Positions 8,932 through 35,131 of a stretch of DNA of 64,000 nucleotides are shown here, in pieces. The notes beneath the pieces are model-generated. The model did no database searches and was not told the DNA's origin. It was given only the letters and a program-made list of their open reading frames with translations. Positions within the stretch are counted from its first letter, which is position 1. Every line of letters begins with the position of its first letter. The stretch lies in assembly GCF_041886205.1 (NCBI RefSeq), contig NZ_CP169029.1; one strand, given 5' to 3'. Position numbers and translations under genes: made by a program. Source of the stretch: Escherichia coli. Its GTDB lineage: Bacteria > Pseudomonadota > Gammaproteobacteria > Enterobacterales > Enterobacteriaceae.

Positions 8932-9166
8932 AGATATAAAACCCTTATATATTAATACGATTGTGCTTATGTTGTTTATGTCATGTGCTTTTGCAGTTTT
9001 CGACTATACCATCAAGAATGTGACGGTAAGCAAGAAAAAAATGACCCAGGAAAGCAAATTAATAACGAGAGTAATCTCATAACCAAATGCGATAACTCAG
9101 ACGCTAAAGTTTTGCCACCCGGCTACCGTTATCAGTAGCAGAGACAATAACGTTAAGGAGTTCCCT

Positions 9167-9439
9167 GTGAGTCGAGCATTGTTCGCCGTAGTATTAGCAT
9201 TTCCATTAATTGCACTGGCTAACCCGCATTATCGTCCGGACGTGGAGGTAAACGTACCGCCAGAAGTGTTCAGTTCAGGCGGGCAGTCAGCGCAGCCCTG
9301 TACTCAGTGCTGCGTTTATCAGGATAAAAATTATTCTGAAGGGGCGGTAATTAAAGCCGAAGGAATACTGCTGCAATGCCTGCGGGATGACAAAACCCTT
9401 AGCACTAATCCGCTGGTCTGGCGGCGCGTAAAGCCATAA
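9167..9439 (+). CDS. ynjH: Small secreted protein YnjH (DUF1496), 90 aa
   Basis: ORF track 9167..9439; GTG start with aaggag Shine-Dalgarno at 9154-9159; signal-peptide-like N-terminus. Confidence 0.75.
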   Translation: MSRALFAVVLAFPLIALANPHYRPDVEVNVPPEVFSSGGQSAQPCTQCCVYQDKNYSEGAVIKAEGILLQCLRDDKTLSTNPLVWRRVKP

Positions 9440-9812
9440 ACGCCTCTAATAGTGGAATGTCAGCAGGGGCCAGCGGATATTGCAGCGCCTCTTCAGGTGA
9501 GCACCAGACCAGCGCCTGATGTTCATGTGCCTGTAACGTCCCGTGGAAGTCGGGTACGTGCCAGGCATGAAGATGGATAATCCGGCCCGAAACTTCTCGC
9601 TGATGGCTGGCAACATACTCACCCACAGTTGCTTCGATGCCCAGTTCTTCGTTTAACTCACGCACCAGCGCCTGCTGCTGGCTTTCATCCAGCTCGACTT
9701 TACCACCGGCAAACTCCCATAATCCCGCCTGATCGCTTTGGGCGGGGCGTTGCGCGAGTAAAATTTTGCCATCACGTTCAATGATGGCGGCAACAACTTC
9801 AATCATTTTCAT
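9405..9812 (-). CDS. nudG: CTP/dCTP pyrophosphohydrolase (Nudix), 135 aa
   Basis: ORF track 9405..9812; Nudix box GGKVELDESQQQALVRELNEELGI. Confidence 0.9.
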   Translation of the reverse strand: MKMIEVVAAIIERDGKILLAQRPAQSDQAGLWEFAGGKVELDESQQQALVRELNEELGIEATVGEYVASHQREVSGRIIHLHAWHVPDFHGTLQAHEHQALVWCSPEEALQYPLAPADIPLLEAFMALRAARPAD

Positions 9813-26161: not shown

Positions 26162-26182
26162 TCTTTCAGCCAAAAAACTTAA

Positions 26183-26245
26183 GACCGCCGGTCTTGTCCA
26201 CTACCTTGCAGTAATGCGGTGGACAGGATCGGCGGTTTTCTTTTC
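26183..26245 (+). terminator. Intrinsic terminator of spy
   Basis: Long near-perfect hairpin (ccgccggtcttgtccac ... gtggacaggatcggcgg) followed by ttttcttttc. Confidence 0.8.
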
Positions 26246-26285
26246 TCTTCTCAAACAGTTGTAAAAAAAGCCTGATCACCACTAA

Positions 26286-27786
<1,501 letters not shown>

Positions 27787-27883
27787 TGTTGACTCCGAAT
27801 GCTGGTTATCTATCCAGTGTAACAGGCGGGGGGCGATTAAAAAAGAGGCGGGTTGATGACAAAGGTTACACCGTCTGACGTGC

Positions 27884-27973
27884 TACGCCTGTCAGGCCTA
27901 TTCGACTCCTGCAATGTATTGAATTTGCAAAGTTTTACAGGCCGGATAAGACGCTTACGCCATATCCGGCATG
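27884..27973. repeat. REP/BIME cluster between cho and nadE
   Basis: acgcctgtcaggcctat and caggccggataagacgcttacgccatatccggcatg flank a ctgcaatgtattgaatttgcaaagtttta linker. Confidence 0.75.
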
Positions 27974-34939: not shown

Positions 34940-35131
34940 TTGCCAGATGCGGCGTGAACCTTGCATCCAGCGATTAATTCCTACAAAGGCGGCGTAACTG
35001 CGCCGCTTGAGACTGCTGACAAACGCAAAACTGCCTGATGCGCTTCGCTTATCAGGCCTACGTTTTTCCTGCAATATATTGAATTTGCACAGTTTTGTAG
35101 GCCGGATAAGGCGTTCACGCCGCATCCGGCA
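34940..35131. repeat. REP/BIME cluster between chbG and katE
   Basis: ctgcctgatgcgcttcgcttatcaggcctac (35031-35061) and gtaggccggataaggcgttcacgccgcatccggc (35097-35130) around a ctgcaatatattgaatttgcacagtttt linker almost identical to the one at 27903-27936. Confidence 0.75.

Follow-up and report, generated by a model that had tools for sequence, protein, structure and literature searches.

Convergent coding overlaps ynjH/nudG and ves/cho of Escherichia coli: probable products of stop-codon drift and transcriptional read-through

Tail-to-tail overlaps of convergent genes reportedly (in work by Rogozin in 2002, Johnson and Chisholm in 2004, and Kingsford in 2007) originate from the loss of a stop codon and the extension of the reading frame to the next stop. 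Noncontiguous operons of the S. aureus menE-menC-MW1733-ytkD type are a further related arrangement. For E. coli, ExcludonFinder (Sanmartin et al., NAR 2025, PMC12288877) listed 165 convergent excludons with overlapping transcription in at least 50% of 58 RNA-seq sets. The excludon concept combines 3' overlap with transcriptional interference and RNase III cleavage, and excludon pairs in general display higher synteny (PMC12288877). The catalogue rests on RNA-seq coverage alone, and the same paper could not validate the convergent excludons with p19 data. Collision-driven termination with overlapping bidirectional terminators at convergent E. coli genes has also been described (Ju 2019, as cited in bioRxiv 10.1101/2022.10.23.513370).

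The window analyzed here is a stretch of 64,000 nucleotides from the E. coli chromosome (NCBI RefSeq assembly GCF_041886205.1, contig NZ_CP169029.1). A preliminary description had pointed to two convergent pairs in it, ynjH/nudG and ves/cho, with coding overlaps of 35 and 41 bp, and the idea it attached to them was that of the excludon. Both pairs were already known, from annotation, as a figure example (nudG/ynjH) and as catalogue entries; cho-ves and nudG-ynjH stand literally among the convergent excludons of E. coli MG1655 (Table 1 of PMC12288877), from which they do not differ in kind. In both pairs coding sequence is part of the overlap, which is not so in most excludons, whose mean spacer is 95 nt (PMC12288877). 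Like tail-to-tail overlapping genes, the pairs have a short 3' overlap, an overprinted non-conserved tail and a length set by the first antisense stop. Unlike in the usual tail-to-tail overlaps, the length and phase of ynjH/nudG are unusually stable across the whole family, probably because NudG needs about five or more residues after F125 and the YnjH tail is domain-internal. The alternation of strands around this pair, gdhA(-) ynjH(+) nudG(-) ynjF(+) ynjE(-), is reminiscent of noncontiguous operons. Read-through from nudG would run antisense through ynjH toward gdhA, and that from ynjH through nudG toward ynjF. E. coli has three reported noncontiguous operons (PMC12288877), and this one does not belong to them.

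The ynjH gene (9167..9439, + strand; 90 aa with a signal-peptide-like N-terminus) and nudG (9405..9812, - strand; 135 aa, Nudix CTP pyrophosphohydrolase) share the 35 nt at 9405..9439. The ves gene (26364..26939, + strand; 191 aa, HutD family) and cho (26899..27786, - strand; 295 aa, excinuclease Cho with a GTG start) share the 41 nt at 26899..26939 in the same codon phase. Both lengths agreed exactly with the preliminary description in the ORF listing and in RefSeq, where the members of each pair are adjacent, lie on opposite strands and face each other. The ORF list also contained a longer form of ves. In a 100%-identical E. coli record, RefSeq annotates both overlaps at the coordinates of the ORF listing. 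Annotations of E. coli B, of a mink isolate, of a B2 strain and of a K-12-type laboratory strain contain them too, and the gene positions that Huang 2020 lists for K-12 (Table S1, PMC7373196) yield identical overlap lengths. An 801-nt stretch spanning the ynjH/nudG overlap was 100% identical to strain LHM10-1 and was found in 5,423 of the 5,426 complete E. coli genomes.

Within 9405..9439, the + strand encodes the conserved YnjH tail (T)NPLVWRRVKP and its stop, and the - strand encodes the NudG tail (F)MALRAARPAD and its stop. As read from the sequence, codon positions in both overlaps pair 1 with 1, 2 with 3 and 3 with 2, hence a change in an overlap cannot be silent in both genes at once. 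In YnjH, residues 33-89 of 90 belong to Pfam DUF1496; in NudG, the NUDIX domain takes up residues 4-125 of 135, and in Ves, HutD takes up residues 8-175 of 191. NudG was matched by PDB 2RRK over all 135 residues with three differing positions; the alignments with solved Nudix homologues reached only NudG residues 120-127. A figure of GWIPS-viz 2018 (PMC5753223) presents strand-specific ribosome profiling of the overlapping nudG and ynjH. Pfam, the orthologue tails, PDB 2RRK and the published Ribo-seq figure showed that the reading frames are genuine and translated up to the annotated stops. The use of different stop positions by ynjH and ves, named in the preliminary description as possible counter-evidence, did not apply, as both genes end at their first in-frame stops in frames backed by Pfam and orthologues.

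Eighty Enterobacterales loci, Salmonella not among them, were fetched around xthA, a gene located halfway from one pair to the other. The ynjH and nudG genes were convergent neighbours across the whole order. In Enterobacteriaceae their overlap was nearly always 35 or 41 nt, with 44, 26 and 23 nt also encountered, and always 2 mod 3, the phase being constant in about 30 loci. Erwinia had an overlap of 8 nt, Yersinia had overlaps of 35, 12, -1, -3 and -4 nt, and gaps of 17-105 nt occurred in Serratia, Rouxiella, Edwardsiella, Hafnia and Rahnella. The YnjH tail TNPL[VI]W.R[VL].., situated inside DUF1496, was kept even without an overlap (Serratia, Yersinia, Hafnia); the NudG tail past the NUDIX domain varied freely in genera without an overlap. 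In Enterobacteriaceae the NudG tail is the antisense reading of the YnjH tail. The difference between 35 and 41 nt was set by a synonymous Thr codon of ynjH: ACT makes the NudG stop, and with ACG, ACC or ACA the stop is lost and two residues are added. The two states were interspersed within Citrobacter, Enterobacter and Escherichia.

Where codon 88 of ynjH specifies Val (28 cases), it was always GTA or GTG; GTT and GTC, either of which would place the NudG stop at L128, did not occur. This bias points to selection on the NudG tail as protein. All NudG orthologues retained at least about five residues past the F/W/Y125 position. We infer that a minimal NudG tail is under selection as protein and that this, rather than selection on the RNA overlap, stops the overlap from shrinking. 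Selection on the arrangement could explain the persistence of the stable ynjH/nudG organization; protein-level selection would be the simpler explanation. Alleles within E. coli were checked with short megablast queries against the 5,426 complete genomes, and a 40-mer at the NudG stop was matched by 4,098 of them, 3,548 exactly.

In many Enterobacterales genera the nudG/ynjH junction was located about 400 nt past the xthA stop (at about 11.2 kb in each locus), which means that nudG must directly follow xthA on the same strand; loci with nudG near xthA are L019, L020, L024, L030, L033, L034, L044, L046, L049 and others. The block of about 8 kb (ydjX-ydjZ-ynjA-ynjF) between xthA and nudG in E. 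coli, Citrobacter and Enterobacter looks like an insertion.

The ves/cho overlap measured 41 nt in Escherichia and Citrobacter and 23 nt in Enterobacter and Lelliottia; the other values were 45, 24, 15, 7, 4 and 4 nt and one 28-nt gap, with all three phases represented. Ves ended with ...WLPGH in most genera, Escherichia and Citrobacter carrying an extra SPDQVQ, and the Cho tails past ...YEI.EL differed in length among genera. This variation reflects stop-codon drift at a spacer-less junction. The overlap was also polymorphic within E. coli: a 59-mer used as a short megablast query was matched by 4,236 of the 5,426 genomes, and exactly by only one. The window carries a rare allele at 26914, with ves codon 184 being GAT instead of GGT (Ves G184D) and the Cho tail altered too. 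The sole locus with a ves/cho spacer (28 nt) was that of Enterobacter sp. ENT03 (L043), where a perfect 14-bp, GC-rich hairpin, CCCCTGAACCGGCA...TGCCGGTTCAGGGG, spans the cho stop and the spacer. A terminator or a REP-like element may have been inserted there.

A neutral model of overlap length was built on the 45 annotated CDS of the region, with the distance from the 3' side to the first opposite-strand stop as the measure. For the phase 2 mod 3, the median in this first-available-stop model was 41 nt, and at least 35 nt was reached in 71% of cases. Spacers at the window's nine convergent junctions are 109, -35, 8, -41, 46, 3, 40, 52 and 3 nt; the spacer does not exceed 8 nt at five of the nine, so junctions too tight for a terminator are the local norm. 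The overlaps are statistically not unusual. The other tight convergent junctions are ynjF/ynjE (10519/10528, spacer 8 nt), ydjO/tcyP (38775/38779, 3 nt) and selO/hemP (at about 61.5 kb, 3 nt). The pairs ynjE-ynjF and ydiE-selO are also Table 1 entries of ExcludonFinder (PMC12288877).

Neither overlap matched an Rfam family. Elsewhere in the window, Rfam ES036 (CssrF sRNA) matched the - strand at 27894-27935, in the nadE-cho spacer, and at 35054-35096, just inside the 3' end of the katE CDS (katE from about 34976). These matches look more like REP-type repeats than like dedicated sRNA genes. A consensus scan detected no intrinsic-terminator-like sites at or near either junction. The preliminary description had reasoned that neither pair has room for an intervening terminator, and the negative spacers together with the empty scan bear this out. 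Terminators embedded in the partner gene were considered as well and discarded, the consensus scan being empty near both junctions.

The folding z-scores of the ynjH/nudG junction (-0.6 and +0.7) and of a further junction fold (-0.1) were all unremarkable. A 12-bp stem-loop, ACCUUGCGGUUG-UAAAA-GCCGCAGGGU (26854..26880, - strand), lies inside ves about 18 nt 3' of the cho stop. It has no U-tract, and the z-score of the 111-nt stretch was -2.7. All three Escherichia loci had this stem-loop intact, with a single G-U change, and other genera had it in degraded form. It may protect the 3' end of the cho mRNA, or its presence may be a coincidence. Like collision-type pairs, both pairs are convergent and show neither a canonical intrinsic terminator nor a clear Rho signature. 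The collision model, however, needs a junction hairpin that places the collision; ynjH/nudG is without one, and the one at the cho stop is specific to Escherichia. A conserved junction hairpin serving as a collision-type bidirectional terminator was accordingly rejected, since the z-scores were insignificant except 3' of the cho stop, and no junction hairpin defining uniform 3' ends in both directions was found.

The Adams 2021 Term-seq tables contained a 3' end at neither overlap, and the SMRT-Cappable-seq supplements made no mention of ynjH, nudG, ves or cho. A long imperfect hairpin with T-runs on the + and - sides occupies the spy-ves interval (26174..26237). Its + side is the spy terminator, with a strong Term-seq 3' end at 26251 (Adams 2021), and its - side contains a terminator-like site (26195..26181). 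The hairpin is the first terminator-like site facing read-through on the cho strand, reached only after all of ves, and it would shield spy from antisense transcription. Adams 2021 placed a Rho-dependent 3' end at 27752 (- strand), some 25-35 nt into the cho ORF, and also reported sensitivity to bicyclomycin in a region deeper in cho. This suggests that premature termination limits cho expression outside SOS conditions.

Published RNA-seq showed that the transcripts overlap in both pairs, and dsRNA was captured on both sides of ves/cho. The RPM values of Huang 2020 (PMC7373196, Table S1c) come from single published tables with one condition set and no replicate statistics for these genes. In the WT, sense and antisense reads amounted to 9.0 and 45.4 RPM for nudG, 7.9 and 19.2 for cho, 80.0 and 2.7 for ynjH, and 156.7 and 4.7 for ves. 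Antisense reads were therefore 2.4- to 5-fold the sense reads on nudG and cho, and the antisense/sense ratio of genes nearby was about 0.01-0.05 (PMC7373196). The p19-captured dsRNA reached 34.7 RPM versus 9.0 RPM of sense reads for nudG and 65.7 versus 7.9 for cho (PMC7373196). The complementarity of the mRNA 3' ends, claimed in the preliminary description, is upheld by the ExcludonFinder entries and by the excess of antisense over sense on nudG and cho.

The p19-captured, RNase III-cut duplexes of 21/22 bp (sequences from Table S3 of PMC7373196) were mapped onto the window. One site is in cho (27106..27126, 167-187 nt past the ves stop, two mismatches to K-12), from which it follows that RNA of the ves strand runs well into cho. 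Two sites are in ves, at 26779..26799 (100-120 nt past the cho stop) and 26491..26512 (387-408 nt past it). For nudG and ynjH, the accessible part of Table S3 held no p19 dsRNA entries, these genes being represented by gene-level dsRNA RPM only. The complementary RNA stretch spans hundreds of nucleotides, far past the coding overlap of 35-41 nt. Antisense reads were spread across nudG and cho, unlike the boundary stop of collision-type terminators.

In the rnc-14 and rnc-38 mutants, the sense reads were 3.8 and 5.6 RPM for nudG, 6.4 and 5.7 for cho, 79.0 and 27.4 for ynjH, and 173.0 and 244.7 for ves (PMC7373196, Table S1c). With no rise of nudG and cho sense reads in the two rnc mutants, no regulatory effect of RNase III is visible. 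Of the RNase III processing proposed earlier, the cutting of duplexes at ves/cho is supported by the p19 capture. The proposed "mutual" character of the interference was not borne out, expression being strongly lopsided (ynjH 80 and ves 157 RPM vs nudG 9 and cho 8 RPM). The strand-specific RNA-seq and 3'-end mapping recommended as a check are largely published; they revealed antisense reads on nudG and cho and no 3' ends at the overlaps. Altogether, the observation is confirmed, and the regulatory role is unproven and unsupported on the available rnc data.

Among the FliA targets identified by ChIP-seq and RNA-seq in Fitzgerald 2014 (PMC4183435) are ves, with RNA-seq values of 18 vs 0 in the fliA deletion, and ynjH, with 29 vs 2. 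The Salmonella ynjH orthologue STM1300 is FliA-dependent as well. The published FliA promoter motif of ves, AACGTAAATCACCCGAGTTGCCGATAAC, is located at 26284..26311 (+ strand), and its strict form was present in 11 of the 26 related loci carrying ves. A predicted sigma-28-like promoter in the ynjH orientation, TAAAGTTT-N12-ACCGTTAT (9105..9132, + strand), was conserved in Escherichia, Citrobacter, Enterobacter, Kosakonia and Lelliottia. The FliA motif that Fitzgerald 2014 (Table 2) gives for ynjH, TAACGTTATTGTCTCTGCTACTGATAAC, matches 9128-9155 in reverse complement; it faces gdhA and overlaps the ynjH Shine-Dalgarno sequence. The published orientation of this motif may be a motif-finder artefact.

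A LexA box, CTGGATAGATAACCAG (27802..27817, - strand), precedes the GTG of cho by 15 nt. The coupling of a stress-induced gene to an SOS-inducible nuclease, suggested earlier for ves/cho, thus stands for cho, whereas ves is FliA-dependent and not just stress-induced. In the accessible part of the Fitzgerald 2014 supplementary tables, nudG and cho were absent as genes. In each pair the stronger partner (ynjH, ves) is a sigma-28 target and the weaker one (nudG, cho) a mutation-avoidance gene. We regard this parallel as a curiosity and not as evidence, since in our rough judgement two FliA pairs need not exceed chance.

The reading that we favour, with a probability of about 0.7, is that these are two ordinary convergent junctions without spacers, produced by stop-codon drift and read-through, and tolerated rather than selected as a switch. 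At the coding level, a gene without a nearby stop extended antisense into its neighbour up to the first in-frame stop, so that a non-conserved C-terminal tail of one protein now overlies a C-terminal core that is conserved in the other. In this way MALRAARPAD, the NudG tail, overlies the conserved NPLVWRRVKP of YnjH, and in the other pair SPDQVQ, by which Ves is extended, and DPANDQRAS, the tail of Cho, each overlie the conserved core of the other protein. Overlaps of 35 and 41 nt are a typical product of extension to the first stop; in agreement with drift, the first antisense stop gave the overlap length, and the stops varied among relatives. At the transcript level, according to the published data, transcription of the stronger, sigma-28-dependent ynjH and ves runs hundreds of nucleotides into the weak nudG and cho. 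The lack of an intrinsic terminator together with this read-through of the stronger partner leads to the excess of antisense over sense on nudG and cho and to the duplexes cut at ves/cho. Any repression of nudG and cho by read-through would be modest and one-directional, and more likely due to transcriptional interference than to RNase III.

Three other explanations were weighed against stop-codon drift with read-through. The most serious, although we consider it unlikely, is that the pairs are true regulatory excludons: FliA-driven ynjH and ves would repress nudG and cho, SOS-induced cho would repress ves, and the overlaps would be maintained for that purpose. Head-on RNA polymerase collisions and/or cleavage of duplexes by RNase III would then make expression mutually exclusive, and a collision-termination model does exist for convergent E. 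coli pairs. In its favour are the presence of both pairs in the published excludome (PMC12288877), the excess of antisense over sense on nudG and cho (PMC7373196), the dsRNAs captured at ves/cho, the high dsRNA RPM relative to sense for nudG and cho, the long-standing lack of a terminator at the junctions across Enterobacteriaceae and the sharing of one sigma factor by ynjH and ves. Against it, the sense reads of nudG and cho did not go up in the rnc mutants, and nudG and cho were absent as genes from what was accessible of the FliA study supplements. The ves/cho overlap varies freely in length and phase, with a hairpin-bearing spacer of 28 nt in one genus. The excludon paper could not validate convergent excludons by p19 data, and no pair-specific experiment was found in the literature.

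That the transcripts do not interact at all, either ending by the stop codons or coming from genes never co-expressed, so that the overlap would exist at the coding level only, is very improbable. The weak expression of nudG and cho, the early Rho-dependent termination inside cho and the absence of Term-seq 3' ends from the overlaps could be quoted for it. Strand-specific RNA-seq, with antisense reads at 2.4- to 5-fold the sense reads on nudG and cho, largely refutes it, and so do the dsRNA sites 100-400 nt past the stops on both sides of ves/cho and the overlapping transcription in at least 50% of the 58 RNA-seq sets (PMC12288877). An annotation artefact, with one ORF of each pair miscalled or ending elsewhere, can practically be dismissed. 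Only the start of ves is ambiguous (TTG at 26301 vs ATG at 26364), which leaves its 3' end unaffected. Pfam or orthologues support each of the four frames up to its C-terminus, NudG matches PDB 2RRK from end to end, and ribosome profiling of nudG/ynjH has been published for both strands (PMC5753223). Moreover, a stop codon cannot be moved by annotation, and an artefact would require a sequencing error in thousands of independent genomes.

Beyond bookkeeping the finding carries little weight: every E. coli annotation shows the overlaps, the idea is catalogued and the data are mostly published. The ynjH/nudG pair nevertheless illustrates cleanly how convergent genes come to overlap in their coding sequences and how protein constraint then locks the overlap, the NudG tail being slaved to that of YnjH. 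The interaction runs in one direction, with a FliA-driven gene reading into a repair gene. We consider it a long shot that the flagellar regulon damps nudG and cho by terminator-less read-through in the motile phase and that SOS-induced cho damps ves. If true, FliA-dependent antisense damping of nudG and cho would constitute a small link from motility to genome maintenance, that is, to mutation rate or repair capacity.
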